Of a stretch of DNA of 64,000 nt, positions 7,660 through 63,289 are shown in pieces. The stretch covers positions 1,986,054-2,050,053 of the forward strand of contig CAJINV010000005.1 in assembly GCA_905178155.1 (NCBI GenBank), read 5' to 3'. The translations under genes and the position numbers were made by a program. Numbering within the stretch: position 1 is the stretch's first letter; every line of letters begins with the position of its first letter. The notes beneath the pieces are model-generated. The model saw only the letters and a list, made by a program, of their open reading frames with translations, was not told the origin of the DNA and searched no databases. This DNA is from Amoebophrya sp. A120. Lineage: Eukaryota; Protista; Dinoflagellata.

Positions 7660-8490
7660 GTTGGTGGTCGTGTCAGCTCTGCAGCTGCGCTGTTCCTCTT
7701 GCAGGAGTTTGCTCTCCCTCTATTGTCAGACCACACGAGACTGCCGCGCCTGCTGAGGACAATATACTTCCATCCCGGCTCTGAGGCCTAGAAGCCTCGC
7801 ATGGCATCCTTGGGTTTACTTGTAGCTGCTGGAGTAACGGTAAGCATGAATCAAAATTATCGATAGTCTTTACAAAGTGCTACGGATCTACGTAAGACAT
7901 CAAAATCGAGGGGATAATCAGTTATTCAGTTGTGCATGTGCTTATTTCCGCTCAGAAACAAAAACAAAACCGTGATCAAAGGAAAAATGTTGTGAAAAAC
8001 AGTTTGGAAAAAGCTTCTTTGGACCTGCTGCTGTTCTTTCGGAATTTTTAAAAGCAAGGAGGATCTACTTCGCAAAAACACTACTAAGAAGCGGCACGAA
8101 CCGAGGACCGATTTGTAGAAACTTGAGATAATCAGTTAATTTTTTGGTTCGGGAACTTCTTCTATCTTGCGTAGACCGGTGATCGAACTTCTCGCGTCTC
8201 TGGCTACTTGTACTTACCTTCTGTTTCTTGAAAAAATAACAACAAGATGAACACTGATATCGCTTTCGATTCTCTAAGCGAGAAAAGTTCCAAGTTGCAT
8301 CTTCTCGCAACTACGTTTCGTGTTTATTCGGTGCTGCTGAGAAAAGGAGCGAATAAACTATCGAGTTTTAAACGTCCTCGTGCAGCGATCATACTGCGCT
8401 CTCTTGGTTCACGCGTTCAGTTGGCGACTGACAGGCCGTTAGTTGCGCTGGAATGGACATACTGTTTCAATTCCGAGAATAAATGTTCTG

Positions 8491-9176
8491 TCACAACAAT
8501 TTCAGGTCCCCTGTGAGTTCGTCTAGCACGTCCTTTTCTTCCGGCCCGATCGCGAGAACGGTTTTGGTATTGGGCGCTATTTGTGTCCTACCCGCGTCAG
8601 TTACTGTGTAGTAGTTGAGGCCTCTTCTCCTCGCCTCCTTCTCTAGCTTCATCATTTGCTCCTCGTCCTGGCATTGCAACGCAATCTTCGCTTGGCCCCA
8701 TCTCCGCCAGACACGTATTCTATCCTTATCTGCCTGTGCCTTTTCATACGCACCCAGCACTGCGTGCCCGCACTGGGCAGCGATCTTGCCCTTCTGCATG
8801 CCGAGGTCTTTGCGCACGATCATGACCATTTTCAGCTCCTTGGTACCACTTATGGTGGCGACGGCCTGGTGGTGTTTTTGAGGTGTATCAATGAGAACGA
8901 CGTGCATTAAGTACTTTATTTGCACTGCAAAAATAATATAGAAAATTGCTTCACCGACGGCACAATACAGAGCAGTTACGAATGAGGCAAAACAAAGCTG
9001 TCATGATGAAAGTAGATCATCTACTTTATCAGGTACTTATGTATTGATACCTGTTTTGTATTTTTTCCCGCAGTCGCGATTATCGTCCTGAGCAGCATGG
9101 GTACCAGCTGCGTGCAGAGCAGCGCTATGCACACTCCAAGCAGGAAATTAGTGTCCGTGAATGCTGCGAGTACCAT
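8491..9176 (-). CDS. PTH2: Peptidyl-tRNA hydrolase 2, with probable hydrophobic N-terminal exon (9051-9176)
   Basis: Motifs KMVMIVRKDLGMQKGKIAAQCGHA, WGQAKIAL, DAGRTQIAP, TVLAIGP, TGDLKLL. The exon junction is uncertain. Confidence 0.93.
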
Positions 9177-10061
9177 GGCGTTTCGTCTATGTGTGTAGTG
9201 TTGTTTCTGGAAGTTGTAAAAACAAAAAGGAGCATGGGGAAGGCAAAGAAATTAATTTACGTAAATTTTGACAGTAAAAAACTTCAGTAAATAAAGCCAC
9301 AAAAACTTATTTTTACGAGCGGTTTTTTCAAAACGCTCGAACCCACAGGCAGCGGCTCCACCTGTGAATATTTTAGTAAGCACTCAAGGAAGGGTGATCG
9401 CTCACGAATAAAAGCAATCGCAAAATAAACCAGACCTTACAAAGGCGTCACTCAAATTAGAATCTTGCTGCACCAAACCGTGAGCTGCAATTGTTCCCCG
9501 TGTTTCACACATTTCGTTAGGCAGAAGATCACATGACGAGCCTCAGATCTGCGAATACGAGCGAGCACTGGTGAATGTGATCCGTTCGGCTGCTCTTCAG
9601 TGGTTATGGGAGCACGCGCAGTCATTTATTTTCGAAATAGAGCCGCGGAACAACGAACTGCGTTCGTGCAAGAGAACACCTTTTTCTTTTTGAAGATGAA
9701 AGTAAGAAAGTGATAGATATACTGTCTTTCATCTGATCCTGACCTTGTCTTTCACTTTTTTCCACACCACCAGGGTGGATTTCCAGATGAAAAGGTCACA
9801 ACACAAACATTGGCGTATATATAACTAACTGTTTTTTGAAGTTCGAAACCATGAGCGGTGACCCACCGGTATGTATTGTACATTTGCAGAACTACAAAAC
9901 TCTTCTTCAACGAGCAGCAGCAGGGCAACTTCTCACCGGGAGCTACGGTGGCAGAACTCCATCGCACAGCGACGGCGTCATGGTAAGTAACCACACGGAC
10001 CTGCAGAAGCAGGACCAGGACCCAGACCGAAGATGCTTGCATATTAATATCAATTTGCAAC

Positions 10062-11181
10062 CTATTTCGTCTGCGCCGCCGAGTCGAGCTTGGGACTGAC
10101 GATGTCTTGCGTGACAAGGTAGGGTGGCTCCCCGCCAATCTCCATCTTGTAGGTCGAACCTGGGAATTTTTTTGAAAAAAACGTGGGCACAAGTCGCTCT
10201 CCGGGGCAAAACACGTGCAAACGAGTGAGAGAAATAGGACAGACTGCCTTCACTATGCAAACGCATGAAGAGAGGGAGAGCTGCTACCTCACACCTCAGC
10301 AATAAATACCTAACATCAACATGGAACAGTTTGTTCTGTACAATACCGTAAAACGGCGTTTCTTCGCTGCTCATTTGTCTGGTTCCCATCCACTTTTGCA
10401 TGTTAATCGAGTCTGGCATTCCATTCCAATATTTGTACTTGTCTCGCGGCGGGCAGTGCGAAGCTGTTTTGGATTTTTCGCAACACAAATCAATGAAATT
10501 GTCTTTGTCAATTTCGTGCATATAATTCATAAGAACAGACTGTCTTACATGCCGCACAGTAAACGACTACGACTACAACATCAACGACCTCAGCAACAAT
10601 TTATAAAAGTCATTAACCTAGTAAAAGTACCTTTTATTTCCGCCTGTCTCTGCACGACCTTTCCAATCCTCTCCATGGTCACATCCCAGCTGTGGTCGTT
10701 GACGTCCTGCTGCGTGATGGGCAGGTGCCGCACCGGTTCGAGCCTCTTGAACGCGCCCGCTTTTCTGACCCGCAGGTCGTGGTTGTTCTGTTTGTGCTGG
10801 AGCAGCGCCGCCTTTTTGTGGCTGTTGATGGTCTCCTCCCGTAAGAGGACCGAGCCCTCCTTCCCGGTGCGGTTCAGTATGTCACCACCCCCCATGCTGG
10901 TCCGAGCCACCTTCTAGTATCTGAAATCGAATCAAAATGCTTCGTCGTTTATGTATGTCAGATGAAGAAAAGTTCCGTTCGTCTTAACAAAACCGATATG
11001 AAGACAAAAAAGCGTTCGAATGGTACAACAGTTTCTCGTAAAACAAAACTACTCTACTGCGCTGAAACGAAAGTGGCAACGTCAAGGAGGGCCTGTAGGA
11101 AACAAGTCGTGAGTTGAGTTCATTATGGAAAGAAAGACGAAAAGCCGCCACTTCTCGTTGAAATAGCGACGCAGTATTCAT
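10062..11181 (-). CDS. Hypothetical multi-exon protein
   Basis: GC-rich coding-like blocks at 10660-10915 and 10062-10160 with AG acceptors; no recognisable family. Confidence 0.45.
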
Positions 11182-11950
11182 TGTTCCCCTCCGATGCAGC
11201 TACACAGTTCCTCAGGACGATAGTGCGAAAAAGCTCCTCGCTATGGTCTCTCGAAATAGGCTAGGTCCATGTGCTTTAGAATTTGCTGGACAGGGACAAT
11301 TAGATGCACGACGAGGTGGATGGACGAACGAAGTCAAGACGCCAACAACCCTTCTGTAGCTAAACGAAAATAACGACCCGCAGTTGCACACGCATTTTCT
11401 TTTTTTTTCCGGTGCTGGGAATGCGCATCAGAATCAGCAAGCGCGCGATGCGACGATTAAAGTTTTATTTTGATCTTCATCTTGGTGTACAATGCATTAG
11501 ATTTTCTGCGCGCGGCAATGGCTGTATTCACGAGTTCAACGTTTCAATTGTTCTTCCACTACCCAAGCAGCGATGCTGAATTCGTGGCGTGACAATATAC
11601 CAGATTTTTTCCCGACGCCGATCCGAATCCATACGATCACTGCCAAGAGGCTACACGCACGTCTGAAAAGTTGTATCAAAAGTTAGTTTTTGTCTGCAAC
11701 AACACTAAATAAAGCATTGTGTTTATTTACTGAGTTTCTGTTTAGTTGTTTGAGTTGGTATGGTACTTTCCTGTCTAAAGTTTTACCAGAATCAGCTTGC
11801 AAAGTGTTTACTTTCTGTGGTTGTTCTTCTTCCTACCTTGTGTCTGATTTAATTGATAAGATTGTAAAAGACGGCGTTGTGCTGAACAAGATGAACGCAG
11901 CCTGCCTCCTGCTGCACCTGTTGTTCGTTGAGCGGCCGTCGTCCTGCTCT

Positions 11951-14900
11951 TCACACTTCGAACTTAAAGTTCGTGATTTTCATTTCCGTCTTCGCTCCTC
12001 TTAAGCCGCCAATGTGCCTCTTCCACCGCATGGTCGCGCTGCCCTTCTCCGTGCCCGTGCTCGTTGACTGGTCCTTCGGCAAGTAGGTCTGCGTTTCGTT
12101 CTCGCGGCGGAAGGTAGACCCGATCGTCTGCGTGCCGTGGGTGTGCTTGCGACGAATATCTGGATTGTGATGTTGGGAAAATTTTTTGTTTATTCGCATC
12201 ACAAATCGGGTTTCTAGTGCATTAGACGGGCATATGAGTAGAAACTCGACAAGTGGGTCGATCTCGAACTCGATGCTTATACTGAATTGCTGCATCACAA
12301 ATTCTTGCTGTACCTGCCATCCTCAAGGCGTCCTTCCTCAATTTCCACTCGTTCCACTCATACGTCGGGTCGATGTTCGCTTATGGGAGGGAAGAACCAT
12401 TTCACTGTCAATTTGTCATGCACAAAACGTAGCAGCAAGGTGTTCGTCTTCCTTGCCGAAGAGGCGCGAGTAGACGCTGGGTGTCTGTAAGTGTATGCGT
12501 GATTTCTCGTAGCACATAAGGAATTGAAATTCAATTATAGCGCATTATATATCCATCGTAGATTTATTTCCTGATATCATTACCATGCGACAGCACAAAA
12601 AAGTTGGCATGCCAATCAAGCACGAAATTTGCACTGGACCACAGTTTGTGTTGATTCTCCCCTCTGATACCGACTCCAGGAAGTGCACGGGCGTCTGCGT
12701 TGAACCGTCGTCCACCTTTTGCGCGCCGAAGTGCTCCAACACCGCATGCAAGGATGACTGCGGGAAGTCCTCGTGCAATCGGAGTAGCTGGATCAGCTGC
12801 GGCATCTTGTAGCAGTGCTCCCGCACGGCGAGAAAGGCGTTACTCGGGCTTTTCACAAACTCCTTCATCATTTCAAAGGACTCAAACACGCAAAACCGCC
12901 CCTTATACTGGATCACCCCGAGCCCCGGATCCCCGGAGGAGAGCACCCCGTCCGAGCTGCACAAGCGCTGCACGCAGTAGCCCTGGAAATCCAGCGGCAG
13001 CTGCAGAAAATTGGGCGTGGTGTCCGGGGAGAGAAACATCGGGTGGTCGGAAACCACGAGGGGAAACTGCTGGTGCGTGTCCGTTCCGCTCGTACTGGAG
13101 GAACTTTGCGTGGTCGTATATCCAACAAGAAAAAGGTGTTACGGTCGCACACATTTTTTGCAAGTAATCCCGCAACACCGATTTTTTGGTCGGCATCACA
13201 AGAAAAATCTGTCGTGCACCAAGTTAGAGTGAGAGGGTATGGAAAAAAAAAAACATGTACGTATGAAACTAAGCTGCTGAGTATGTCCGGCAAGACAGAA
13301 CTTTTCTGCCTGGTATTAGCATGTTCTGCAAGAAGACAGCGTGCAACTACTGTGACCACCTTCTTCTTGCGATATCGTGTTTTTCGTCTCTAATATCGCG
13401 GGCACCGGACCGTGGACCTCGGTGATCAGCGTTGTAATTTGCTCCGTGATTTCGTCCATGGTTGGCTTTGGCTCGGTATTGAGAGGAAAAATCCCCCCTC
13501 CCCATATCAAAGGGAGATTTCTGATGCGCGATTTGTGTACACAAATCAACCTGTATTGCTGGAAAGTAAAGGGACACACCCACGGCCTAGTCTTCAGGCT
13601 CTTTGTCATGCTGTTCTGCACAATGCAGCTGCTGCCCGTCATGCTGGCGAGGCAAGGCTTGGCCGTGCCAGACAGAACTACAGTCCGCATCCCTTCCCTA
13701 CCAGCATCACAACTGGATTTGTGAACAGCAATCAGCATCACAAATTTCCATTTTTTTATGGGGAGGGGAGATTTTTCGCTTTGATACTCGGCGGGTTTGC
13801 TCGACTCCGCTTTCAACGTTTCGAGAAACTCTTTTGGGAGGGTCGGGCAGTACCTGCGAGGGTGACGTCAAGTAGTTTCTGAGCTCGCGTGTTTATTTAC
13901 TTGAGGTTCAAATTCGATAACTTGGTCGCATGAGAAACTAAGCAATACATCAAGATGCGAATCAAAAAATACTGTGACTTCTGGAGCAGCTCCCTCAAGT
14001 CGAGCTTGGCCGTTGCCAGATGCAGGTCCAGTCTTGCTATTCCCAGCAATTTTCCCAGACTGTCGAAAAGCGGATACACTTCGCCCTTTGCTAGGGAACC
14101 TTTCAAGTTTCGAAAGATTTTATTTAAGTACTTCTTGGCTTCTCATCATATTAAATATGCATGTGCATCTTCACAGATTCAGATACTGGCGCTCAATCAC
14201 CTTTATAAATGGCGCTCAATCACCTTTTTCTAGAAAGAAGTAGAAGGTCTATTTTCCCCTCCCAAATGATCAAAACTGTAGATACCTCTCTGCATCTCGA
14301 TTTTTTCCACGAGCGCTTGCACCAGCCCGTCGTACTGCGCCCGGTGTTCCCCTAGCCTCGTTTGCAGCATTGTGAAATCGTCGCACAGCGTTTGCCAGTA
14401 GACTAACCTCTGCCGCCAGTGCGCGAGTTCCTCTTTTTTCGCGTTGTGCTTGAGGCTAATCACCTTCCACTGCCGACACATTTCGGTTGACTCCTCGATT
14501 TGCTCTTGGATGTGGGAAATCACCTCCTCTAATTTCGACACCGTCCAGCACTGCTCTAGCAGAAGGCAGGGCGCACTGTCGGCAGCTGTTGAGAAATTTC
14601 ATTTATAGATTTTTCCAAGGCAGGAAATCTACGCATCTTCGGCGTCACGGAGCATGCTAGAAGCTTGTGGTGGTTCTTGACAAAGACTGAAAATGAATCT
14701 GAAGACACACCTGCACTCCCCGTGGCTTGTATGGCTGCGAGTTTGAGGTTGAGAATTCTTATGCCGTGGCAGATTCGCAGCAACTCCTCGGTTTGTTGCC
14801 GCTTCTCCGGGGCGGTGAGCGCGAGAAACCGCTGCATGGTGACCTTCGGCATGACGGATTCCAGGATCTGCGTCATCTCCTTGTCGAGATACTTGTCGTT

Positions 14901-15835
14901 GTGCTCCTTTATCGGCTTGGAGGACACCGAACTCGGCATGGATGGGACCTTACACCTCTTCACCAGCATCTCCACGATTTTGTTCCACACCAAGTTGCCC
15001 TGCTCGTAATTCAGGTGCACGGAACTCGAGGCGCCCTCCTGAATGATGAAGTTTATCGTCCTCGACTCGTATTCCGCCTGCTCCTGCGCTATCGCAGACA
15101 CCTTCTGCTCGCCTTCCAGAGCTGCGGTCTCAAACCTGATGTACCGTTTTTAAATTGTCATGCGAAACATGCTGCAGAGCACAGGACGGAGGAGTTGCTG
15201 CTTCTCATGCACGGTAAAGAAAAACGAAACACGCTGCAAATGACGCAATCTGAAAGTAATTTGTCAATAGTGCCGAAGCTGTAGAAGTCGATGATGTCAA
15301 GAAACGAATAAATACGCTGCTTGTAGTGCCAATGTTTCCATGCCCGGCTGCTGTTTGGTGTTAAAAAGCTTCTTCATGTATCCCAAGAAAAAAGTATTCT
15401 AGCAGTTACACACATTTTTTGCCGACTCAGCAACAGTTCAGATATGGTCTTCTACAGGACAGGAAAAATTCAAATTTGCAGCAAGAGGACTGTATGTAAT
15501 ACAGTCACTGTATGCAAGAAAAAAAACACGCATGAACATAAAACGAGGTTCCCGGGCTACTACATCATGACCGAGTTTGTCTGTCTTGCTGATCCTGCAA
15601 AAAAATGTGTACTTAAAAACTGCCAAACCGTTGTAGTTTCTTTGCATATCACACTCTCCTCCACCACAACCCTCGCCTCTGGCTCCTGCAAGCCGCCTGC
15701 TTCGGCGTAGAACGCCGAGGTCGCATTGTTGAAGATCGTTCTGGCCACCAACGCGGCGAGCGACTCGGACACCGACAGACCGAGCTGCCGGCAGGCCAGC
15801 ACCAGCTCCTTGGTAATCGCGTTGAGCGAGATCAT
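11951..15835 (-). CDS. CFAP206: Cilia- and flagella-associated protein 206, multi-exon
   Basis: Motifs VSESLAALVAR, FLQLPLDFQGYC, QLIQLL, STQTPVHF, YEWNEWKLRK, HGTQT..FRRENETQTYLPKD, GGLRG. Confidence 0.88.
12382..12669. mobile_element. Degenerate introner in CFAP206
   Basis: Imperfect TIR TATGGGAGGGAAGAA vs TATCAGAGGGGAGAA; TSD poorly preserved; removal joins HFLES to (N/D)IDPTYEWNEW. Confidence 0.55.
13119..13395. mobile_element. Degenerate introner in CFAP206
   Basis: TAT...ATA ends; TSD TCGTA/TCGCG; removal gives PVPATTQSS in frame with VSDHPMF. Confidence 0.7.
13477..13786. mobile_element. Introner, family B
   Basis: TIR GAAAAATC(C/T)CCCCTCCCCATA; TSD CTCGG; removal gives SKPAEPKPT. 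Confidence 0.92.
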
Positions 15836-17986
15836 CGTGCGATGTACGAAGTTGTGGTGGTTGTCCTCTCGGGTTTTTTTTGTAGAAGCTGTGGTCTTGT
15901 TCTCCGATCAGCCTTAAGAACAGTTTCTCGTGGAGGTCACCAAAGAGGTAGGAGAAGACGCGTCGAAAGTGGACCACGAGTCTTCTTGTTGTGCAACGCG
16001 AACTAGAAACTCGTTTGGGTTTTATTTCTCAGCGAAGTAGGAAGAAGATGCGGGAGTTGTTACAAAGACGCCATCTTCTGGCTCAGGCTGTCTACCAACT
16101 GTAGTGACATCAAGATCCTCGGCGGCCCCTCGGTCTCCCCTCCACTGCTAGCGGTGACCTAGCAGCTACCCCGGAGGTGGGACCACACGCACGATCAGAG
16201 AAGGGCTATTTGTGAAAAAACTGAGAGACACTAAACACAGTTCTACGTTTGGGTCAAGGACAAAAACGAGTTCATGTGCACGTTGGTGCTGAGGACTGCA
16301 ATGAGTTCCGATCGACAATGACTATCACTATGCCCACCTTGGGGTTGTACGCGTATATTCAACAACAACAACCGATCGCGGTGCTGGCGACATTTCATGG
16401 AACTAGAGATTCCTCATGCTCTCCGGCTCTCACGACCCAAACCCAAGACAACTACATAATGAATCGTGATCGTCTCGTTCATGAATAGCCCACGGCGTCG
16501 AGGAATTTCTGTCGCAGCCATGTTAGAACTGAACATGCTAGATGAGCATCCGTGCTAAATTACGACCCAGAGGAGGCGGACAAAGAAATCAACACGACCC
16601 TCACGATGGTTCCATCTCTGTTCATCAATATAATCTCTCGGTCACGACACTGCGTGACGGTAAGACCACGCTAAGATCCACCACCTTAAGTGACCTTGCC
16701 AGTAAGCCCTCGATCATTCCCGAAACGACGTAATAAATGGCACTGTCCGACCAGACGAAAAGATGGACGATTCTATTAGGTACAACTCCCGCAATCTTGT
16801 ATTTACTACAGAAGTACTGAAGTCGACGAAGGTGCGGAGATCAATGAGAATCGAACCACTTGGTAGTACCAACCTCACAAAACTTTTTTTTCAATCGCGA
16901 GTGTGCACGAAGACGAAGCCTAGCTAGAGGTGGAGCTAGTAGCTACGCATGACATAACCACACAGGACCCCAAAACATCGTGGAACAGTTTCAGTGAAGC
17001 GGGCCCTTTGCTGCGGCCTGACCCTGAGATTGCGTATCACTTTATAATCAATCCTTGGTCGCCTTCTTCGCTGTTGCGAAAACGCAATTACTTTTGCTTA
17101 GGTTTTTGGTCACGCTCTTTCGTGATAAATCGGGTACTTTATAGAAGTTTCTTGATGACATTGCATATCTCTACCGAGACTGCTGGTGAGTATTGACGCC
17201 AGGATTCTACTGTCGATGCTTGAGCACCAGAAGGTTGATGTTACAAAAAAATTTGAATGCCTATGCCATGATCCCTACCTCTTTTACTACCTTCATCAAT
17301 ATAGAAGAGTCGGTGGAGGTTGGTAAAAACTTTTGACATTAGTTTTGAAAAATTCTACTTTTCGCTCTACGCCTGTTCTTGTGGCTCTTTTCCGTTGCGC
17401 GTGAAAAGTTCTTGAGTCTGTAGCGCGTCGACTAAAAAGCAGTCAAGGTGAACAAAGTGACTTCTGTCGATCATTTTCAGCTGCACAGACACTCCTCCAC
17501 CAGGGCTGGCTCATCTTCTCGACGCAAGTAGAAGATGCACGAGTTGTAGTTGTACTTTCAGTCTCCCGATCTACTTAGTCAAACAGTCGCGGATGCACGT
17601 TTGCCAGAGTACGAAAGAACTCGTGCCGTAGCGCTGCGTCCGGCGTGATGCGTTTCTCCTTGTCAAGTTTCAGCATCTTCCACGTCAAATCATTGTACTC
17701 AATCTGCAACTTCGCCTTCAGATTGACCCGCACCCGCTCCAAAGAAATTCCCTCGGGCGGATATGGAGAGGGAAAAATAGGTGACCATCACCGGTTGCTG
17801 TGGGGGGACGCGGTGCGACGAATCTCTCTTTCTGGGCGAGTAGAACTTGTTCGGCTTTACCACTTGCTTGCTCGTGATTTTCATAAAAAATAGCGGCAGC
17901 TGCATAGATTTTTTCTGAATGCATCACCATCATGACCAAGCACAAGGACAACGACCCTCAGCACGACCACGGCAAAGGGTAAATAA

Positions 17987-20900
17987 TCAGCAATCGCGAC
18001 AGTTCCTTTTTTCCGCACGTAACCTGGTCGCCGCTTGCGCCGGTGGTTTTTCCGGTGGCGGCCTGGTGCTCTTCTTTTTCTGCTGCAGTTCCTGGTTGTT
18101 GTCGCTGCCGTTCGGCGGAAAAGTCGTGGTGCCGCCGCCGGACAGAGCCGCGGGCGTTCGTTCCCCGAGCGCCGCCGTCGTCGTGGGGTCTGCAACTAGT
18201 TCCGCTTCTGCCACTGTTTTTATTTCGGGCACGCTTTTACCAGCAGGGGCAGCAGCGGCTCCGGATGTGGTCGCACCTGTAGCAATTCCTGTATTTTTCG
18301 CTAGTACGCGGAGACCCGACAACGCGCCTGGCGCGTCCTCCATCTCAACGTCAGCTGCCTGCTCTTCTGCGCCCCCACGAGAACCCACGTTGCCGCCCTT
18401 GCTTTTCTCCTCTTCACTGCTGCGCGCCTTCTTGTTCCCCTGATGTCCCTCCCCGTCTTCGCTCTTTACCTCGTCGTCGTCGTCCGCACTGCTCGACCCA
18501 GATGACGAAGAACTGGAAGAACTTGAGGAAGACTCGCCACCGGCATCCGGGCTGTCCTCGGTTTCGTTTTTCTTGCCGTCATTCGTTTTTTCGCCGCCAT
18601 TTTCCTCCCCGGCCGGCGCATTTTCCTCGTTTTCCGCTTCGAGGACGGGGTCCTGTTCTTTCTGTTGCTCCAGTAGAGCGTCGACCTCAGGTAGTAGTTC
18701 TTGCCCACTGCCGTCGTCGTTTCCTTTGGTTTCATCTCGTCGTCCCTCGGTGCCCGGGTTCCGGACTTCCTGCACCCCCTCCGAGCCATCTTCCGCGTCC
18801 GCGTCCGCCGTTTTGATCAGCCGAGAGTGCTCGCACAGGAGCAACTCCGCCTCCTTGCTGCTGTAGAAAGACTCACTGGCCGGCAGGTGCTCCGCGTTGG
18901 GGGCGCGCGAAAAATCGGAGTCAGCGTCGAGCTCATGCCTGCACCCGATCGACCACGGTTGAAATTGCCACTTTTCCAGTACCTCCTGTAGGCGGTTATC
19001 ACCTTGCGCCCTGCGCGTCACACTACCCCGGTAGAACACCCGCTCCCGTAGCATATCACACAGATAAAAGCTGGCCGGTGCTGGGCATATTTGTAAACGC
19101 AAGGAAACCCACAGAGAAATTTATCTCTACTGCAAATTGTAAACAGCATGCTACGGGCTCGCCCATGGCAGACTTTGCTGTGCGTTTGTTCTTTATTTTT
19201 GCACTTTACAAATGCCGCCTGCTAGCTTTTTTCGGTGGCATACAGCACGTCGGATGCTTTTACTTCGGCCTCGGTTCCCTTCTCGACGTACATCCGCCGC
19301 GCCAAGCTTAGCGGGACAGCCAATTTCCGTTCGTACTTTCTGCCGTTGTTGGGGTGGGGGGTTTTGCTTTCTATTCTCGTGAAAAAGATGACTGCTCTCG
19401 AGGACTACAACTAACTTTCAAAACACAGCTAGCTCTCTATTCCGAAGACTACAAGCGGGCCAAAAAATCTTCCTGTCTGCTGCACGCTCGCGTGGCACAA
19501 ATAATTGTGGGTGGTTTCATGCAACTTCACCACACAACAAGTGCCCAAACTTATGTGCTGCGCCACCAGTTTCCCAAGCAGCAGAGAGAGGAAAAGGGAA
19601 AAAATGCATAAGAAACGAAACAAAAAGCAGCAGCATGACCCCAGCAGTTCTTGGAGCTCGCGGACCGCGTCTTTTCCACGGGGTAAAATCAATGTCAAAG
19701 AGGTTGTCCTGCCGCTGGAAATTCCTCGCCATTTTCAAACCTACTTTTTTATCTGGGTAGGAAACCGTGTCGGGCGGGCCGTCGGTATGCATTGCAAAAA
19801 ATGTGTCTACTGGGTCTGAAAGAGTGCAACGTTTGTCATGAACATTTTGCATGACCCGTGCTGTCTGTGGTGCGTCCCCTAGCATCATAAATTTCTGAAA
19901 AACTCTTGGTCGTGTCTTGGTCTTGATGCCTGTTCCACATGAGTAGAAGTGCCTTCTCCGCGTACTGAAAAAAGTGGACTGACTCCCCTCGGTCTCGCTT
20001 CATATGCAATACAACAGGCTCCTGTTGTATCTGAGAATCCAAAAAATGCAGCATCACAAGGTGCACTCTTCCTGATCGCCGAACCTCAAATTTGCAAAAA
20101 TGCATAGTCGGCTTGGTGCGCCAAGTCTGGCGGGTCGAGGTCGTTGAACGTGTGCTGCGCGTACAGCTTGAGCAGGTGGTGCGTGTCCCTCTGGTCCGTT
20201 GCCGAAAGGGAAAAAAGTCTCCGGACCAAGCAATCCGGCACTTTGCCACTCTTGTTCTTCAACTTCCGCGCGCCCGTCGCCGGGTCGGTCTCGTAAAACG
20301 TCCGATAGTAGGCGGCCTCCGCGCGCGTCACGAGGTACCGCGGACAGGGGCCGACGACCTGCAGCACCATGTCGATGTGCACCCGCGCCGCCCGGTTTTC
20401 CCCCAACTTCTCCCGCCGCGGGTCCAGCGTCCGCGTGTAGCTCGGGAAGAGCTTGTGGCCACCCACGAAGGTCTCAAAGGACAGCACGGCGAAGGACCAC
20501 ATGTCGACGGCCGGGGTTGGCTATCAAATGTAAAAATGTCTGGGTCTAGAAACTTGTCATGCTGGTTGGCGTATCATGAGGCGGCCACAAATGCTGGCTC
20601 AGCATGACAAGTTTCTGAGCTCCTGGGTGTTGCCTATTCTGCATGACAAACTGCGCTTCTGCATCACAGAAACGCGGAGCTCTTGGGTAACGTGCATGAC
20701 AGATTTAAGAGTTATGCCAGACAAGCATGACAAACGTGAATTCTTCCAGACCCAGACATTTTTACATTTCATATTAGCGGCCAGTCCCCCATCCAGATCT
20801 CCGGCGCCCGGTACCAGGGAGGCGAGATGTGCTGCGATTATCACAATGAAAAGTGCCCCCCACCCCTGAAATTGCAAGTATTTGTGGTGCGCAGTTTCCA

Positions 20901-23900
20901 AATGAAAACTTTTTGTCATGCATGAAAGGAGTATGAATCTTTGTGATGCAGAGTCTAGGCGTGGATCGCATCGCTTGCATGACTGCCGCCGCTCTTGCTG
21001 GGGTCTTTTGCAATGCAAATTTTTGCTATTCACGATTGGAAACCTGTGATGCTGATAGATGCAAGAAGGCGAATGTTTCATTTGGAAAGGTTTGCAATAC
21101 AAATGCTCCCAAGTTCGGGGGTGGGGGGATTTTTCCTCTCAATAGCGATCGCGCGTTCTCCAGTGGCGCTTTCTTGATCTCGCCCAGGTCGGCCAACTTC
21201 GCGGTGCAGGCGAGGATGTAGCCTTCCACGTCTTTGGGTCTCAGCCCGTGCATACCGGTGAAGAAACGCTCCCTGCGCAGTTGGTCCTCCTTCGCGCGCA
21301 GGGCGGCTTCCATCTTTTCGTTGCCGCTCAAGACGCGCTGGTTGTCGTGCACGACCGGGTCGTAGGAGGCCGGAAAAAGAATTCTCTGCCGGTTCATCTC
21401 GTCCTGGTGGTCGGCGAGCGTCCGCACCATTTTCACTCGTTCCGGGTCCAGGTGGATCATCACGTTGTCGGGCTTCAAGTCCGTGTGCATGTACCCAATG
21501 TGCCTCAACCACCGCAGGCCCTGCAGCACGTGGTAGCAAAGACGGCCGGCGAGGTGGACGGGGAGCCCGATGCGCTTGTTTTCCGGCCGGACGCCCTCCC
21601 CCTGCGGTCTTGGCTCGTACTGGTTGATCAGGGTGCTCAGATTCTTTTCGTACGGCTCGTAGTGCCCGGTGCCCATGTTCACTTTGCCCGCCAGCGCCTT
21701 CTGGCCCGTGTTCCGCCAGAGCTCCTCCTTCACCAGGTCGTTATATCTCTCCCGCAAAAACTGCATATTTCCGTGCCCGAGCTCGAACACCTGGAAGATG
21801 TGGCCCTCATGTTCGAAGCATTCCGCGCCGCCATGCACTGCAAAACGAACCCCATCGCGCTACCAGGAATTCGAATGCTTTCTTACGCGGCAGATTTCCA
21901 CTGCGTTTGTATCTCAAACAGCTGCAAAAACGAAATTTGTAGAACATGTGCATGATGGAAACTGGAACTTACACTTACTACGAAGAAACTAACAGGCGTT
22001 CGGTTTGTGTTGCATGAGTCGTCCTCGTTCTTTGTTGCAATTGGTCCAGGTAGTGCGATGATCATAGGTACTTTTACAGGAGGTAACCGTGGAACATCAT
22101 CAGGAGCCGGGCCGTGTCTTTCTTCTGGTGTTTTTGCAGAAAATCCAACTTCTGCGAAGTGTCCCAGTAGTTCCATCTCTGGTCTTCGGAGAGCTCCGTG
22201 GCGGCCTGCGGTTCTCCGCTGGCAGGGGCAGCTGCGTCCAAAATCTTTTCCAGCTTGCCCTGCAGCCTGTCTACCATGCGGCCCTTCCAGTTGTCGTAGT
22301 GCACGGAGTACATCCTGCTCGCGGTATGTAGCTCCTCCAGGTACCGCTGCTCCTTTTTCACTTGGATTGTCCCGGAGGAAAAGAAGGCCAGCACGTGCTC
22401 AGCACATCGGACTGAACTCTGTAATGGGGTCAAGACGAAAGAAGTGCAATGGAAGCACATGCAAAATTCAGAAACTATCCGCACAGGATTTTCCTGTCTG
22501 CTTTTACATCTCAAATACCATGCAGGGAACATACATAGGTAGACGGAGCGGATTAGGCCTACGGCACACATGGTGGCTTTTTTTCGCATGATACTGTTCG
22601 CGATGAACGAGCCGCTTTTGCTACCCCAGCCAGACTATGGATTGGAGATACACTACCACTAGCAAATTGCAAGCACAGGCCACATTTTCGGCATTAGTTC
22701 CAACACACATGAAGGGAAAAAAGAAAGCCCATACATAGTCAAAACCAGACCAAATTCAAAATCTAGAAGGGCATTACAAAAAAAGCGTGGCGCAGGCACC
22801 TCGCCTCTTCCTTTATTTCCCCCACTGCCAGAGCCAAACCCCTCCGCGGCCTTTCGGGGCCCCTCCGCGGCTAGCAGAACCTTGCTAGTTTAGTGCTCTC
22901 CGCATCCGATACGGATTCCGGGTCGTTCATTTGCCGCGATGACTTTAGCGCGACCTGGGTCCAGTTGCTCGGTTTCTCCGAATCCTGCGGGGCCGCTTCG
23001 ACGGAGCGCCAGGCCTTGTAGACTATGCCATACATCCCCTTGCCCAAAGTCGCGCAGCGGTAGCGGCTTCCTCCGGCCTTCATTAACATGGGGTCACTGA
23101 TAAAGCGGTAGGTGATGTTCTCCTGTACGTCGACATTGTCCCAGACCACCGGCGCAGGTGTCGTCGCGTTTTCTGGAGAAGGTTCTTCCTGCTCCTCTTG
23201 CTCGCCAGTACTCCTAGTCGCGTTCACGGGGGGCACCGAGCTCGAGGGATGCAAGGTTGCCGGGGTAGCCGCGCCCGAAAAGTTGGCCTCCTTGTAGGAG
23301 TAGGAAACCTTGACGGGGAGGACCTGATCGGGCTGCGCGTGGAAATACGCCGAGTGGTCGCTCTTCTCCTTGGGATGTTCCCGCTTCGCTTCCTCCCTGG
23401 CCGCCGTCAGCGCGTTGTTCGCCTTTTCGATCAACGGAACCCGATCGCGCCGCCACACCAGCTCCATCTGCCTGCGCCTTTGTTCTTCCTTCTGGCGCGC
23501 CTGTGGGTCGTCGTCACTGTCGGAGTCTGAGGAGCTGTCGCTGTCACTGGAAGACGAGGCCGGGGCGCCATCCTTCCCAGCGACCTTCCCCGCCACCTTC
23601 GCCTTCCCCTATCACATGGAAAAGTGCCCCCAGTGCCCCAGAGCGGAGACATGTTTGCTATTCAAAAACCCAAACCGGAAACACCCGCCATACCGAATGT
23701 TGCAGCATCACTAATTCGCAACGCGGCGTAGAGAAAATCTTAGCCGCACACTCGCACAACAAAATGGGGACTGCCCTGCTGGAGCGGCGCGGCTCGCGTC
23801 CGTTCTGAAACGAAACGCGCCGGCCTTCCTTTATGCAACAAAGAAAAAGCTCCAGCCCAGTTGGTGGAGCTTTGCCTGGTAAACACTTCGGCTGCGGCTC

Positions 23901-33300: not shown

Positions 33301-34521
33301 TTACAAGTAGTAGATGGGCTGGGGTGCTGGCTTCGTTTTGATACAACATTGATCGTATTCCTGACACAAAACGGAGAACAGCTTTTGTACCTGCTTTTTC
33401 CCTTCTTTCTGGGCCTGCTCATCAAGTCCGAATCTTTCGCGCAATGCCTCGGTTCTCCGTTCAAGGTTCTCGATCTCGTTCTCGAGTTCGTCTGTTAAAA
33501 ACCAATATGCAGCAACGTCATCCAAACTCATCTCGATGGATCTGAGACGTTCATCCAACGGCAAGTATTGTTCCCCGGTCGCGTAGAGGCGGACGGACCA
33601 CAGCCGCTTTTCAACTTTGTCCGATAACTCTTGTATTTGTTGTTGTGTATCCAATCGCTGGTCCTCTTCCATGTCCCCCTTGTCAAGCGCGTCCCATGCT
33701 CTCACCAGCTCTGCATGATCCTTCTTTGCAAGCTGAAAATCCGCACGAGCTTCAGCAGCCCTGTCAGGGCCAGCAGAAATAACCTCAGCAGGACTAGCAG
33801 GAGGGGCAGCATCAGCAAGAGCAGCAGCAGGGTGGGCTTGCTGCGTCACTTGGTGGGCTTTAGGAGCATGATGAGGGGCAGCAGGAGGATCTTTAGCAGC
33901 AGGAGGATCTTTAGCAGCAGGAGGATATTTAGCAGCAGGAGGATCTTTAGCAGCAGGAGGATCTTTAGCAGCAGGAGGATCTTTAGCAGCAGGAGGAGGT
34001 TTAGCAGGACGACGACGAGGCACAGAGGGAGCAGTTACTGGTCGGCTTTGTGCTGCTTGATGCAAAGGACGAGTGTAGTGGGGAGGCGCAACGGCCTGGG
34101 GTGTGGCGCCCGGGACGAGCGGCTGTAAGCCCCCGCCCTGGCCGCCACCGCCCTGGCCGCCCCCGCCCTGGTCGCCCCCCACGTGGTCACCATCACCCTG
34201 GCCACCCGAAGCTTGAGCGCGAGCACTTTGAAGTGGACCGGTTTTCGTTGATGGAGGTGGTCCGCAGCAGTCCCTCCGCTCCAGAAATTCCTGATCTGGC
34301 AACTTGGCAGGTGGAGCCATTGCAGCTTTTTCTTCCGCGTTGACGTCTTCCCGGTCAACATCGTTACCGCGGTGTTTCTCGTTCTCGTCCAAGAGCCCAA
34401 CGGTTTCGCTTTCGTGCAGAATTACACGAGCCTCCCCGCCAAGTGGCAGAACGGCGGCGAAGCAGATGGCAGCGAGGTACCCGCCCGTAGTCGTCATCAC
34501 CGAAGTATTTCTGGAGCCCAC
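33301..34521 (-). CDS. Putative secreted protein with Gly-rich and PPAAKD repeats and a coiled-coil C-terminus
   Basis: 406-aa ORF with a signal-peptide-like N-terminus (YLAAICFAAVLPLGGEA); may have a further 3' exon near 32950-33140. Confidence 0.75.
   Translation of the reverse strand: MGSRNTSVMTTTGGYLAAICFAAVLPLGGEARVILHESETVGLLDENEKHRGNDVDREDVNAEEKAAMAPPAKLPDQEFLERRDCCGPPPSTKTGPLQSARAQASGGQGDGDHVGGDQGGGGQGGGGQGGGLQPLVPGATPQAVAPPHYTRPLHQAAQSRPVTAPSVPRRRPAKPPPAAKDPPAAKDPPAAKDPPAAKYPPAAKDPPAAKDPPAAPHHAPKAHQVTQQAHPAAALADAAPPASPAEVISAGPDRAAEARADFQLAKKDHAELVRAWDALDKGDMEEDQRLDTQQQIQELSDKVEKRLWSVRLYATGEQYLPLDERLRSIEMSLDDVAAYWFLTDELENEIENLERRTEALRERFGLDEQAQKEGKKQVQKLFSVLCQEYDQCCIKTKPAPQPIYYL
33878..34008. 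repeat. 18-bp coding tandem repeat (GCAGCAGGAGGATCTTTA), about 7 units
   Basis: Visible array encoding PPAAKD on the minus strand. Confidence 0.95.
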
Positions 34522-54185: not shown

Positions 54186-57100
54186 CTACCACCCATTCGG
54201 CGCCCCCATTTTCCCGTTACCCTTCTTGCCCTTGCCGCCCTTCTCTGACGAGGCTGTAAAAAATCCTGGATGTTGACCGTGGTGTTGCAGTATGCATTGC
54301 AAACGCACCATCTTCGTGCTAGTAGTTGTAATTGCACACGATCCACAAATGATCACTCCAGAACAATTATGGAAGAACGCGCTAATATGCAGAGTCAGGT
54401 ACTTCTAAAGCAAAACACGTCCACCGACATGGAACAGGGTGCAATTCCAATTCCTAGTACGAGTACGACACTGTTGCAGAGGATATGCAAAGAACTACCG
54501 TACTGATTGCAATAGAGATTGTTCTCTCCGCCCTTCTTTCGCTCGGATCCGATATCCCGAATCAACTTAGCGGTCATCCTATCAAATGTAAAAATGTCTG
54601 GGTCTGGAAGAGTGCGCGATTTGTCATGCACATTTTGCATGACTCCTGATGTCTGTGATGCATGCCCTAGCATCAAAGATTTTGTGAGGGCTTCCTGATG
54701 CCTATACCGCATGACAAATGCTCTTTCCGCTTAGCAAAACTTGGACTCTCTTTGCTGCTCATGCAAGACAGATTTTTTTAAAAATCAAAAATCAGCATGA
54801 CAAGCTGGATTCTTCCAGACCCAGACATTTTTACAGTTGATACATCCGCCCACCCTATCCGAATTCACAACCCCCGCCTCCCTACTTATCTCATTCGCAG
54901 GGCACATGCAGAAAAAACAGCGGCAAGAACAGAAGCAGAACCGTGTATTAAATAAGTAGCTTTTATTGCATGACGCAGCTATCTATCAGAACTGTAGTAC
55001 CATGCCTTCTGGGAACTAGGACCGCTTCTCCGGTCGTGTGTGAATAAATTGCAAAAATTTTGCACGACAAATACCAAGGAGGGCCGCGAGTAGTTGCGCA
55101 CTCGGATACAAACCAGTTGGTTTTTTCGCCCTCCGACACTTGCGACCCGTACTTTTGCCACAAAGAATGCAACTTATCCAGCACGTCATACATGTCCTCG
55201 GCGCCCTCCCGCCCGTACTCGCTATCAAATGCAAATACGTACTTAGCAGTCTGGAAGTAGATGAGTTGTGGCTGCAGCATATGATATTGCGTGTTACGAC
55301 ATCAAAAGCGCTTGCTGTTGTTCACTTCTTGTGTCGTTCAGCAAAATAAACTACACGTCACTTTGTCATGCGTAAAAATCTGGAGCCCGATGCGCCCGTC
55401 GTAAAATAATTTCTCATGCTTGACTAATATGCAGCCGGTGCAACAGCGCGCTAGCTAGATGTGTCCGATCACGAAGTTGCATCGCAATTTCATAATTTTT
55501 CCAGACTCAGACTACATATTTGCTATGGATACTTGTTGAGCCTCGCCAACTTCTCCAAAACGGTCATGTCCAGCACATCCGCGGCGCAAATATCCTTCAG
55601 AAAAGTCGTACACCCATACCGGAAAAAAAGATTTGCGCTGCTGTTTTTCTGTCGTGTGATGCTGATCTGCGAGAGCGCCAACAACAACACTCTTTCAGGC
55701 ATAAAAAAATGGACCACTACGAGAATGCAGAAAATATGTGCGTCAATGGGCATGAGAAGGGTCATCGTGCGAACATTGCTTGCCATGCTGAACAGAACAG
55801 GTTTTATTCCGGGACTCACTCTTTGTCTTTCTGACACAGAAAAAGAGCATGTTCTTGGAAAATATCTTCAACTCCGGTAAAGCTGTATCAGTACTTCTAC
55901 TTTTGGATAGCAGACCCCATCCTCCGAAAAGCTGCTGTCAAAGCTATCAATCACCACTTCATAGTCCGCGCGGTTCTTTTGTCTCCAGCTGCTGGTCGCT
56001 CCTCCTGCGTTACCACTAGATGAGCAGGTAGCTGTGCCCGAATTGTTCGCATTGTTCTCTGACAGTTTCCGGGATGAAACAGAGCTAGGATGCGGCGCAC
56101 CATAGTGCACCCCTATCAAATGCAAAAGTGTCTGGGTCTGGAAGAATACAAACTTCTGATGCGCATTTCAGAACACAGAAAAATCTCTCATGCACGGGTA
56201 GCAAAAGCTGCCCGCTTTCTGTCACCAAAGTGGGGGATTTGTCATGCGGATTCAGCATTGCGGAAGCTTCTCGAAACCTGTAATGCTAGAGCTTCCATGC
56301 CAGACCTTCTGTGTCATGTTGGGAAGCTAAGGGCTGGGCGTCCCTGTCTTTCTCTAAACCTTAAAACGGTAGCCACTTACTCGACAAACTCTAGGTAGAA
56401 TAAGTTTGGACAAAGTGATCACTACCGAGAGACAACAACAAAATAAAGGCTCCTGGGACGGCTGCGGCGTGAGCATTTGTTGCTATCTGGGTAGGGATAA
56501 CGTTGTATGCAAACCTAAACACTAGCGTCAAGGGAGAAAAGAAAAGTAAAAAAGCGGTAAACTATCCTACTATGACACAGTCCCAACTACGAAAAAACCC
56601 CTCTTAAAAAGTGAGGCAAGATGTAATGTAGTTGTTTTCATGGCGAGCAGCCGCAAACGAGGCGAACTGTCGCAGCGGACAAATGCAAAAACGTCCGCAA
56701 CCGAGGGAGCAAAGATGGAACCGCAAACGCCACCGACCGAGACAGCATCAGATCATGCAAAAGGTCGGAACAAGCCCGAAAACACAAGGGCGGAGCAACT
56801 ACATTACAAACCCCAAGACGGGAAATATAACTATCTAACCCAAGCTAAAATAAGTAATAATCTACCTTAACTAACACTCTATACTAGCGCGCGTCTAAAC
56901 TTCTGTGTAGTGTCATGCAAAAACAGCATGACTCTTCCAGACCCAGACATTTTTACTCTTGATAACCCCAGTCGGCGCACAGAACTGCTTCACTCGGTTC
57001 TGCAACAGGTATCTGACGGGAACGAACGCGTTGGTTTGGTACCGATTGTAGCTCCCACTGGTGCTGTTCATTCCGCTGTAGTAACCCGTGTGCCACCCAC

Positions 57101-60100
57101 CCATGCTGCCACCAGCGCCCGCATACTGGCTGTTGTTTTCCCGGATCTTGGCAACGTCCTCGATAGCAGTCGGCCGGAACACGAGATGGTATCCAAGAAT
57201 GAATAAAGTGGTAACAATCACAACTTACGACCCAGCACGTATTGCTGCAAGTACTTATAACAACTTCTGAGCATGACAGAGAAATAAAATATTAGTATAT
57301 TTGCAAGAAGAAAAAGATCATTCATAAAAGAGGTAATAAAAACGTGTCGTGAAACTAGGCTCCCAAGCATGAAATCCCGCATGAGCATGACAGATGAACT
57401 GGTCTGCCTTAATACTTCCTTGGTCCTCTCTACAACACTACAATCGGTCGTCGTAAGTAACCACTGTAATTATTCCTACACTTTCTCTTTTGCATAGATC
57501 GGGCTTGGTCGCGAGTAGAAACCGCTATGGATTGCAAAAATGTCTGGGTCTGGAAGAGCCAAACTTGTGAAGCTGCATTTGGATGCTAAAAAACCTGTAT
57601 TGCATGACCAGCAAGAGGATTCAAATTTGGCTACGCGGAGAGGGCATTTGTCATGCTGGATGCGCATAGATAAGCGCTCAAAAAATCTGTGATGCTATTG
57701 CTATAGCATACATCACAGACATCATGGATCATGGAAAATGTGCATGACAAAGTTGTGCTCTTCCAAACCCAGACATTGTTGCAAGCCATAACCGCAGGAG
57801 CAAGGCGATGTTCTCCGTGTCCGCCGTTCCCTTATCAAACAAAAAAAGTTCGTCACGATCACTCATGCGCATTTTTGCAATACAGAACTGTTTGTCATGC
57901 GTAAAAATGCATCACAGCCAAACTTTATCAGGGATTTCCCTAGTGTTTCTGCAATACAAGGAAAATTTGTGATGCTAAGAAAATTTGTAATGCAAACCCT
58001 GCAAATTAGCGACTGTGATAAACTTTTTTCTCTCCATATCCCTGGTGGTGACAGCAGTACTGCATCGAGCCCTCCCCGGTCCGTTCGAGCATTTCGTTCC
58101 AAGACTTCTTCGGGGTGATCTGCGGCGTGTATCGGAACCCGTGGAGAGCCACGGTGGGCGCTTTGAAGTATTTCTGCATCTTCATATGGATTGCAAAAAT
58201 GTCTGGGTCGGGAAGAGTGCAAACTTGTCATGCAGAATTTGCATGCCCCATAAGGTCTGGAATGCAGGACATAGCATGACAGATTCTGCGAGGTCTCTAT
58301 CATGCCTGTCCTGCATGAGAAGTTCCCTCTCATGGTGGTCAGAAAAGGGCGTCTTTTGTTGATCACGCAAGACAGATTTTTGTGTGATCCACAGGACGCA
58401 TCACAAGTCCCATCCTTCCAGTAGACCCAGACATTTTTACATTTGATACTTCACCATCCCGGACAATTCCTCCGCCTATCGAAAGGAAAAATCCCCGCTC
58501 CCCATATCGAAAACGAAATTTGTGATGCTGTATTTGAGGTCACAAATCGGCTTGTCATGCTGGAAGGCCAAAGCCGCAGTCGCGGCCTCGTTTGCAAGCC
58601 ATTTGTCATGTTGGGAAACTAAGGGCAGGGCGTCCCTTTGTAAATCAGAACTACAAAGTTTAAACCGCCTGCTCGGTAAACTCTAAAGCAGAAAATTGAA
58701 CTGCGCGATTTCTACCGAGAGACAACAACCGAAACTCCTGGGACGGCTGCGACGTGAGTTCTGTTGTTATCTGAGTAGAAATAGCACTGTGCAACCATCG
58801 TGCCTTAGCACCGAGGGAACAGAAAAAATAAAAAAGGTGTGAAGAAGCTAACTATGACACAGTCCCACTTACCCAAAGAACCATCCTAAAGGTGGTATCT
58901 CGAATTTCTAGCATGAAGGAACTGATTGGTTTGGAAAATGGGGTTGCGATCGTGGCGCCAACAACCAAATCCAGGGACCAGCATGCAAAGGACCCGAGGA
59001 ACCACGAGGTTGGTGTGTCCAGCATGACAAACACGTCGTCAAAGACAAAAAATGCCACGAGACCGGAGTAAATCATGACCAAACCGAGGAATTGCATGAC
59101 AAATTTGGCCGAGCTGTAACAAATTCGAGAACCAGGACGGAAAAAGTGTACTTGACCAGCGTAGTGGTCGCGTACTACGAACCCCTAGGAAGAAAGTAAA
59201 TATCATTTAAAGTCAGGTTCTATAGTAAAAATTTCGCGCGTTTGTAAAACTAGACCGGTCAAAAACCACTTCTGCCTGTGCCGTCTCTATTCTATATTCC
59301 CTTGCTACCCTAAGAAGTAGCACTTAAATGCAAGTCATACAAGAACACGTTGACCATGGTATGCAAAAGCCGGCGCATCTACCGAGTTTTCGTTCCCAAC
59401 AGGCAAATTGCAAGCCAACGCGCAAGCCATTTGTCATGCTGTTTCCCACTCTCAGCTGCCTCCTATCATGCTGAAGATACAAGGCTTCCCCACGCCACCC
59501 AGCACTACAGTCCGCATCTTTTCCCGTGTAGCATGTTGATTTGTGACAACAAATCTGGATCACAGATTTCCGTTTTGATATGGGGAGGGGGGATTTTTCC
59601 TCTCAATACCGCCAGCGCGATCTTTTCCGCCGCCGTGGTCTCCCGAGCGAAAGTTCCGTTGTGCAGCACGTAGTCGAACGCGAGGTCTTTCAAATTACAC
59701 CACCGGGACAGCAGCGCCACAAACGGGTGCTTCTCCGCCTCTCGAATGCAAATATCGATCTGGTGATGTTCTGGAAAGAAGTACCGGATGAAACTTGTGA
59801 TCATGCGAGTTGTCACCAGCACTAGCACTTCTCAACTTGTTGCGTCGGCCGCCAAGCATGAGCACAACAAGTTCGGGAGATGCTACGTGCTGCCGATTCT
59901 GTATCTGTTCCTGCCTGCTACGAACTGCGGTACCTGAAAGTATACAGAAACATCCGGCTAAGTACTTACTTTACTTTTGCATGCTTAAGGTGCGTGACAG
60001 ACTTTTGAGAGTCGAGCCAGCCGAACATGACAAAGCTTGCGCTCTTCCAGAGGACCCAGATCGATATTTTCAATGCATACGGGCCGGTTTGCGTTGATTT

Positions 60101-62119: not shown

Positions 62120-63289
62120 GTGCCGCTGGTCAGCTTAGCTTTCACGAGAGGTGGAGGACAGTGGTAGCTGCAGGTCGACGTTCCCGGGGGCGTGGTTAGC
62201 TTTCAGGGGGAAGGGGAGGGGATTCTCCTGGGGGCGAAAACTCTGCAGGCGCAGGGCTTTTGAGTGCGCCGGAGCCCCCTGGAGGAAGACAAAGGCGTGA
62301 CAGCGGCCCGCCCCAGGCCCCTGGAGAAGGAGAAGCACCGGGAAACCGAAAGAACACCCGGGGCGAGCCCACCCTGGGAGGGGACGAGCCCTCCAGGGTG
62401 TTCCCAATTTGCGAGCACCCCCCCAAGTTGCGAGCCTTAAGGGCGGCCGCTCGTCATTCTAGCTACGCCCCACTCTATTTCTAGTTACGCCGCCAAGGCG
62501 GTGGGGCTGCTTTCGACGGAGCCCACAGGGCCGCAGCTGCGGAAGCTGCGCGACAAAAAACCTGGCCAGCCAGGCAGGTGCAACCAGCCCAGGGGGACTA
62601 GGCGCACTGTGTGTGATGGCCATTCCTTCGGGGCAGCGAGAAAAGGCGCCGCTTTCTTTGCGCAGGGCGGCGGGGGCATCCACACGAGGAGGGGCCTCCG
62701 CCGCGAGGCAAAACGGGGTAGCCCAAACAAAGCGCAAAGCCATCCCGGGCACCGTGGCCGGGCCGGAGCTGCTAGTTCGCCTGCACCTGCGGGCGCAGCA
62801 GCGCGCAGCGCGCCACCCTCAGTCAGACAAATAAGCCCTTTCCCTCCCACGGCTGCGCCCCCTTTTCCCAGGAACGAGCGCCACGTCCCGCGCTACCACA
62901 CAGACACGGGTTGCTCGGCGCTAGTTTCTCCACAGGGGGCGAGGGAAGCCAGCAGCGCTGGCGAGCTCTGTGGCGCAAGCTCGGGGCGAGCCGACCCGCG
63001 CGCGGGGCAATGGGGGCGATTTTGTACTAGTAAGCTTTCTCCTAGTAAACTCTCTACTAGTACGCTTACTAGTAGTTTTTTTCCTTCCGTGTCACGTTAA
63101 ACTTACTAGTAACGTTGTTCACTAGTAAAATTCTTGGATTTTCCTTACTAGTAAGATTTTACTAGTAGAAATCGGGCCATGCGTCAATCACTTTCCTTGC
63201 CGTATAGTATATAGGGTATTGTGCCGCTGGTCAGCTTAGCTTTCACGAGAGGTGGAGGACAGTGGTAGCTGTAGGTCGACGTTCCCGGG
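62120..63289. repeat. 69-bp direct repeat pair (62120-62188 and 63221-63289) enclosing a GC-rich segment and an ACTAGT-rich tract
   Basis: GTGCCGCTGGTCAGCTTAGC...GACGTTCCCGGG occurs twice with one mismatch. Confidence 0.9.

Follow-up and report, generated by a model that had tools for sequence, protein, structure and literature searches.

The window analyzed here, 64,000 nucleotides (nt) of the genome of Amoebophrya sp. A120 (contig CAJINV010000005.1, positions 1,986,054 to 2,050,053), contains two introners, mobile elements that form introns in protein genes, each of which carries an insert of a second mobile family. We consider it probable that these passengers are truncated non-coding copies of one family, which inserts at (T)GTCATG^C via target-primed reverse transcription with a partner enzyme that has not yet been found. 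The earlier note on this DNA had read the two inserts in the same way, and 10/10 copies are now placed at GTCATG, with long duplications of variable length, one fixed end and a nested opposite end. A precise 3′ end without poly(A), a ragged 5′ end and duplications of 8–19 bp are the expected product of target-primed reverse transcription.

Two introners with inserts of one family

The window is eukaryotic and rich in elements of 150–350 nt that start with TAT, end with ATA, and bear inverted ends next to 5-bp duplications; 28 such elements were picked up by a strict detector, compared with 0–1 per shuffled window. The introners of A120 are described in the accessible portions of PMC7789003 and PMC12130899 as TAT followed by seven variable bases and a run of A, with direct repeats of 3–5 nt and a length of ~240 nt, and both hosts match that description. 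Host A (family A, 56114..56964, no strand assigned) runs from TAT to ATA, has inverted ends and a 5-bp duplication ACCCC, and carries passenger 1; host B (family B, 58477..59608, likewise without strand) is flanked by CCGCC, carries passenger 2, and its removal restores the reading frame. The terminal inverted repeats match at 21/25 bases in host A and 22/25 in host B, and both 5-bp duplications are exact. Each host is repeated, inverted at its ends and duplicated at its target; removal is seen in a transcript-like contig for host A, and a frame is restored in silico for both.

The inserts are real. Both hosts align with empty siblings to the left and right of the insertion point, and with the insert taken out they measure ~252 nt (host A) and ~304 nt (host B), much as their siblings do. 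The empty siblings hold the target motif once and without an insert, and a joint that skips 599 nt is present in 11 contigs of the DNA run X1. As the earlier note had it, both inserts begin directly after TGTCATG, at 56319 and 58611, and end in a stuttered partial copy of the target. Passenger copy 1 (56319..56899; subfamily 1; minus strand in the presumed RNA sense) follows the left target duplication (56311..56318, plus strand), whose 8 bp, GTGTCATG, stand at 56311 and 56910; its far junction (56900..56917, plus strand) consists of a 9-nt partial target, one additional base and the 8-bp duplication. Passenger copy 2 (58611..59407; subfamily 2; minus strand) follows a 17-bp duplication (58594..58610, plus strand) that recurs at 59422, and its far junction (59408..59438, plus strand) holds a 10-nt partial target, 4 additional bases and the 17-mer. 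The sequence TTCCCAA near this far end was considered as an inverted copy of the junction and rejected, being family sequence.

The block common to both inserts, placed at ~265 nt in the earlier note, is confirmed and extends over ~290 nt (69.6% identity, E 5e-25); aligned locally, it scores 212, against a mean of 30 and a maximum of 48 in shuffles (n=300). The inserts do not simply differ beyond it, as had been supposed, since further shared blocks follow, ~650 and ~950 nt from the fixed end, and the two copies represent two subfamilies of one longer element. Block II, which occurs in both subfamilies and has a predicted stem of 8–9 bp, lies at 59250..59330 (minus strand) in copy 2, and copy 1 ends just before it. 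Few introners seem to carry the family, yet copies of both subfamilies occur within a single gene at a distance of 2.3 kb, which may reflect a hot spot or ascertainment.

Further copies, duplications and far ends

Additional copies were gathered by scanning metagenome contigs with one conserved 18-mer, which gave nine loci (L001–L009). One of them, L008, was a chance match to the 18-mer with no model hit and was left out of the counts; the remaining eight are copies of the element, which makes ten copies with the window and nine independent insertions. In order of length, the DNA added is 137 nt in L003 (duplication 9 bp), 301 nt in L002 and L005 (17 bp), 331 nt in L001 (19 bp), 403–495 nt in L006 (candidate duplications of 6–7 bp), 599 nt in window copy 1 (8 bp), 731 nt in L009 (11 bp), 790 nt in L004 (19 bp), 828 nt in window copy 2 (17 bp) and 1445 nt in L007 (at least 15 bp). 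The duplicated bases are host-specific, measure 8–19 bp in 8/9 events and are not accompanied by terminal repeats. The far ends stop at different points, from ~120 to 1350+ nt, along a common non-coding sequence, and their junctions show 0–3 nt of microhomology, extra bases or stuttered target. Copy 1 is 96% identical with the longer L009 over ~600 nt, and copy 2 is 72–73% identical with L004 and L007 over ~800 nt.

The same truncation gradient appears in X1, whose depth on L007 is 5447 at the fixed end, 1147–1568 just inside it, 454 and 621 at blocks II and III, and 35–44 beyond 1 kb, with unique flanks at 42–53; depth here is not a copy number, and the gradient alone is used. Among the X1 contigs listed, at least six begin to match at the T of TGTCATG and diverge further on, at least eight extend past the start, and none of the matches listed starts at the first base of the element. 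Viral contigs gave 0 matches for two patterns, prokaryote genomes gave 0 matches, and no additional diverged copy was present in 111 kb searched.

The loci L002 and L005 contain the same insertion, with 1 difference in 456 nt and the same truncation, duplication and host, while their outer left flanks differ. Judged by these flanks, host and passenger have likely moved as a composite unit; gene conversion or misassembly may alternatively account for the pair, as L005 ends inside the host. In L006 (3898–4400), an inverted 8-nt copy of the upstream target stands just before one candidate duplication, possibly a product of snap-back synthesis. In L007 (1367–1447), the far 80 nt, which include an introner-like motif, are missing from X1 and may be a carried-over donor flank or the result of a template switch; an ending at the 5′ end of a donor intron was tried for this locus and rejected, as the match is weak (score 46, against a shuffle maximum of 43).

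Target motif and choice of host

All eight scan copies have GTCATG immediately before TTGGGAA (7 TGTCATG and 1 GGTCATG, the latter in L003 on both sides), and with the window copies this holds in 10/10 copies, or nine independent events, so that the site specificity claimed in the earlier note stands and its proviso that other copies might sit at random sites falls away. Every duplication is followed by C and then by A or T. All ten copies lie within TAT...ATA introners of five end types, with both host ends seen in the two window copies, L001, L002, L003, L006 and L009, and one end in L004, L005 and L007. Since family A hosts are used at three different positions, insertion is decided by the motif and not by position. 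Internal TGT(C/G)ATGC motifs are common to unrelated introner families across the window, in both orientations, and a transposase or a splicing factor may bind them.

The safe-harbour idea of the earlier note holds in one part: host A appears to be removed together with its passenger at contig level, whereas a targeting of introners as such is not established. Sites with GTCATGC lie inside introners in 77/139 cases by the strict mask and in 94/139 by the extended mask, which covers 16% of 102.5 kb. Because 55–68% of these sites are already in introners, insertions in exons would be purged, and an unrelated element likewise occupies an introner of the window, the occurrence of 9/9 events in introners (p ~0.005–0.03, before allowing for selection and undetected introners) does not establish a preference beyond the motif; by these counts, motif abundance plus selection may suffice. 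The sister motif GTGATGC, which accounts for 59/153 of the motif sites in masked introners, was used 0/9 times (p ~0.012).

A conserved RNA fold at the fixed end

Block I, the conserved end of the element (56319..56603 in copy 1 and 58611..58885 in copy 2, minus strand), folds as a long rod in which 9/56 pairs show two-sided changes; its cells are paired at 99%, compared with 32–51% when partners are slid. On the minus strand, all six one-sided changes yield G-U pairs, and two wobble pairs that never vary are G-U as well. Fold z-scores for single copies are −2.3 and −3.4 on the minus strand and −0.4 and −0.8 on the plus strand, and against column shuffles the minus strand reaches −5.0 to −7.2. 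Hence a minus-strand RNA, in which the fixed end would be the 3′ end, is favoured by the modeled G-U pairs. An invariant 6-bp pseudoknot without covariation is possible in the same model.

An invariant 13-mer lies ~250 nt from the fixed end (56569..56581 in copy 1 and 58851..58863 in copy 2, minus strand), and, in the RNA sense, its core UGUCAU complements the target flank that follows that end. It is unchanged across subfamilies that are only ~70% alike. The complementarity is a weak hint of RNA-assisted targeting and only a hint because a chance match among the 43 invariant hexamer windows has a probability of ~2–13%.

Probable removal with the host intron, and orientation

The contig 17 of X3, a data set that is RNA by guess only and stems from a sample different from that of X1, joins 56108 to 56965 gap-free in its own coordinates, and the next introners are absent from it too. 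Host A therefore appears to be removed together with its passenger, if the X3 sample carries the passenger. The host gene segment (55869..59831, minus strand) contains a 302-codon frame after removal of five introners, both hosts included, and of one duplication each; the codon log-likelihood of this frame is +44.7, compared with at most +3.4 for the other five frames. Splicing of host B would follow from the restoration of this frame. The raw RNA run X9 yielded 80 partial reads with family-A ends only and is uninformative on splicing. Exact splicing of a non-canonical intron of ~250 nt seems to persist when it is enlarged to 851 nt, which indicates end-pairing rather than length as the splice cue. 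The GT/AG-like signals of a plus-strand gene near 55910 and 57189 were rejected, as they resemble introner ends (57190 was detected as such and 55910 judged by eye).

With the fixed end placed on the left, the host gene lies on the minus strand, and passenger and host gene have the same sense, in 6/6 firm calls, namely both window copies, L001 (345 codons), L002 (1595 codons, a kinase), L006 and L007 (one-sided long frames). The loci L004, L005 and L009 lean to the same orientation, and L003 gives no call. Motif sites in the introners of the window face both ways (22 vs 23), for which 6/6 sense gives p ~0.016, on the assumption that all genes of the window are on the minus strand, which was checked for the Pfam-matched genes and the host gene.

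Class of the element and proposed mechanism

Site-specific non-LTR elements (non-long terminal repeat elements) join one uniform end to a fixed position of the target, are truncated to a variable degree at the opposite end and duplicate a variable length of target, and all three features are present. By this analogy, the passenger works like a putative element of that class, with no clade assigned. Long terminal repeats and duplications of 4–6 bp, which would mark an LTR retrotransposon, are absent from the copies, and a poly(A) or simple-repeat tail, classical for long and short interspersed nuclear elements (LINEs and SINEs), occurs at 0/10 fixed ends. No tRNA-, 5S- or 7SL-derived head with RNA polymerase III boxes was found in L007, whose 5′ end may be absent. 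Open frames inside the inserts (e.g., 56550-56867) have no Pfam match at curated cut-offs, and Rfam gave only chance-level matches (E up to 10 and 5), with no ribozyme or group I/II intron, although distant members can escape such a search.

We infer the following course of events. A copy that is sense to its host gene would be co-transcribed in the pre-mRNA and would exit with the introner. A partner protein of non-LTR type would bind the folded 3′ block and nick the template strand of a gene after GTCATG, whereupon the freed DNA end would pair with target bases read through into the RNA, so that junctions are exact and lack poly(A). Copying would halt early, the second strand would be cut 8–19 bp away, and repair would leave a long duplication, sometimes with stuttered target fragments. 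Splicing of the introners would let copies persist, and transposition of the host introner could carry them along.

Several observations weigh against this reading. No reverse transcriptase or endonuclease domain was found in the 9 + 62 frames scanned, nor in the 1.4 kb of the longest copy, and long copies encoding such enzymes, which the earlier note had suggested looking for, are not among the copies gathered here. The covariation of block I is carried by about three lineages only, the plus-strand fold is also non-random (z −3.7 to −5.7), and the presumed RNA strand is U-rich, the plus strand having 33–36% A. The sense bias could reflect selection against an A-rich strand in pre-mRNA and not the mechanism. 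The locus L006 offers only duplication candidates of 6–7 bp, and every extra copy came from one 18-mer, a scan that would miss diverged families.

Alternative explanations

Insertion could be guided by RNA or assisted by a ribozyme, a long shot in our estimation, in which the internal UGUCAU loop would pair with the target, through a strand swap or through the RNA 3′ end being partially reverse-spliced into the sense strand; reverse transcription would then be primed where the other strand is cut, 8–19 nt away, and the end product would be identical to that of target-primed reverse transcription by a partner enzyme. The invariance of the 13-mer across such dissimilar subfamilies would suit this explanation, in the RNAalifold model the 13-mer and the 3′ flank are paired in 8/8 rows, it can also form a small stem presenting UGUCA, and the sense-strand bias would follow naturally. 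However, the helix never varies, and its covariation is hence uninformative; the chance figure given above applies, ATGACA recurs elsewhere in subfamily 2, Rfam offers no ribozyme or group I/II match (E up to 5–10), and the 3′ end has neither the terminal G of group I introns nor an adjacent domain V/VI (judged by eye). In a fuller form, which we likewise hold to be improbable, a promoterless retroelement would parasitise introners, find its site partly by its own RNA loop, be expressed in excised introns and spread as introner cargo.

It is quite unlikely that the inserts arose by capture, in which a protein that binds the introner motif, be it a transposase or another factor, makes staggered nicks and reverse transcription then places a copy of an abundant structured RNA in the break. 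This would explain a target that is common to unrelated introner families and the lack of a dedicated enzyme in the scanned frames, but a single RNA family with a base-exact end in 10/10 copies points to a dedicated RNA–protein pair, the sister motif GTGATGC is unused, and the introner ends themselves produce 5-bp duplications. That the family is an ordinary LINE or SINE with weak specificity, of which only the intronic copies have survived, is very improbable and largely refuted: selection must contribute, and an unrelated element also lies in the introner at 869-2066, yet selection cannot put 9/9 events at the same 6–7 bases and the same bond. Finally, that TGTCATG is the element's own TG-start terminus, of a plain LTR or terminal-inverted-repeat element with the short duplications (4–6 bp) allowed for in the earlier note, is refuted in practice, for although the junction starts with TG, empty siblings hold the motif once, the duplicated bases depend on the host and are up to 19 bp long, GGTCATG flanks the insert of L003 on either side, and terminal repeats are absent.

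Other features of the window

A third enlarged introner lies at 869-2066; its sibling at 2220-2498 measures 279 nt, and its unrelated insert of ~920 nt is not at TGTCATG, has a 12-bp duplication (894 and 1813) and inverted ends of its own of ~35 bp (912-945 and 1768-1801). Minus-strand genes at 2792-21859 match the Pfam families Lon protease, PTH2, FAP206 and protein kinase, and several are split by introners. An 18-nt tandem repeat at 33842-34033 encodes proline/alanine-rich units in a minus-strand frame, and a 69-nt direct repeat with 99% identity stands at 62120-62188 and 63221-63289, 1101 nt apart.

Significance and comparison with known systems

The passengers add an extra layer to mass intron gain, in which introners are exploited by an element keyed to their common motif. 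Introners tagged by a passenger could serve to trace introner movement, and one tagged unit at two loci is what DNA-level transposition predicts. Discovery of the partner enzyme would add a target-primed reverse transcriptase that recognizes 6–8 bp and does not need poly(A), and the significance would rise sharply if the internal loop guides targeting. Full-text literature searches, with most subscription papers outside their scope, and the accessible parts of PMC7789003, PMC12130899 and PMC11282704 yielded no motif-specific passenger in introners. A table in PMC12130899, as far as that source is accessible, labels four A120 introner families as non-LTR, and the passenger may overlap with these, the comparison being one of labels only.

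The loop and the junctions resemble those of linear-RNA retrohoming by group II introns. In that process, an RNA loop is complementary to the target, and the 3′ junctions are fixed whereas the 5′ junctions are ragged. Here the pairing is to the 3′ flank and not to the 5′ exon, and no Rfam group II match was obtained.

A second point of comparison is R2, of which SIDEs are non-autonomous relatives. According to the accessible portions of the respective papers, R2 has uniform 3′ and variable 5′ junctions and is co-transcribed with its target (PMC3774820), its insertion is aided by annealing of read-through RNA (PMC6530143), and its 3′ untranslated region contains a pseudoknot (PMC12222951). The passengers likewise have one uniform and one variable junction and a structured end, which would be the 3′ end, and co-transcription and flank annealing are proposed for them. 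In contrast, R2 targets 28S rDNA, whereas the target here is a short dispersed motif and duplications of 8–19 bp are the rule; neither a hepatitis delta virus (HDV) ribozyme nor a coding frame was seen in the passengers.

The idea of the earlier note, which knew of no description of it, is not wholly without precedent, as non-LTR elements and SINEs that preferentially enter non-autonomous DNA transposons are in print, namely Tx1L in Tx1D of Xenopus, and Tx1-Mar and SINEU in Mariner-N4_AMi of crocodilians (PMC4494074, in its accessible portions). The likeness extends to duplications of ~16 bp and to a proposed transcription from the flanking host (PMC4494074, likewise). The passengers differ in that no small nuclear RNA head and no Tx1-clade protein were found in them, and their hosts are introns of protein genes. 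Moreover, the elements of the accessible account hit a single position, in one transposon family or in a close group, whereas those of A120 use a motif of 6–8 bp at varied positions in five introner families.

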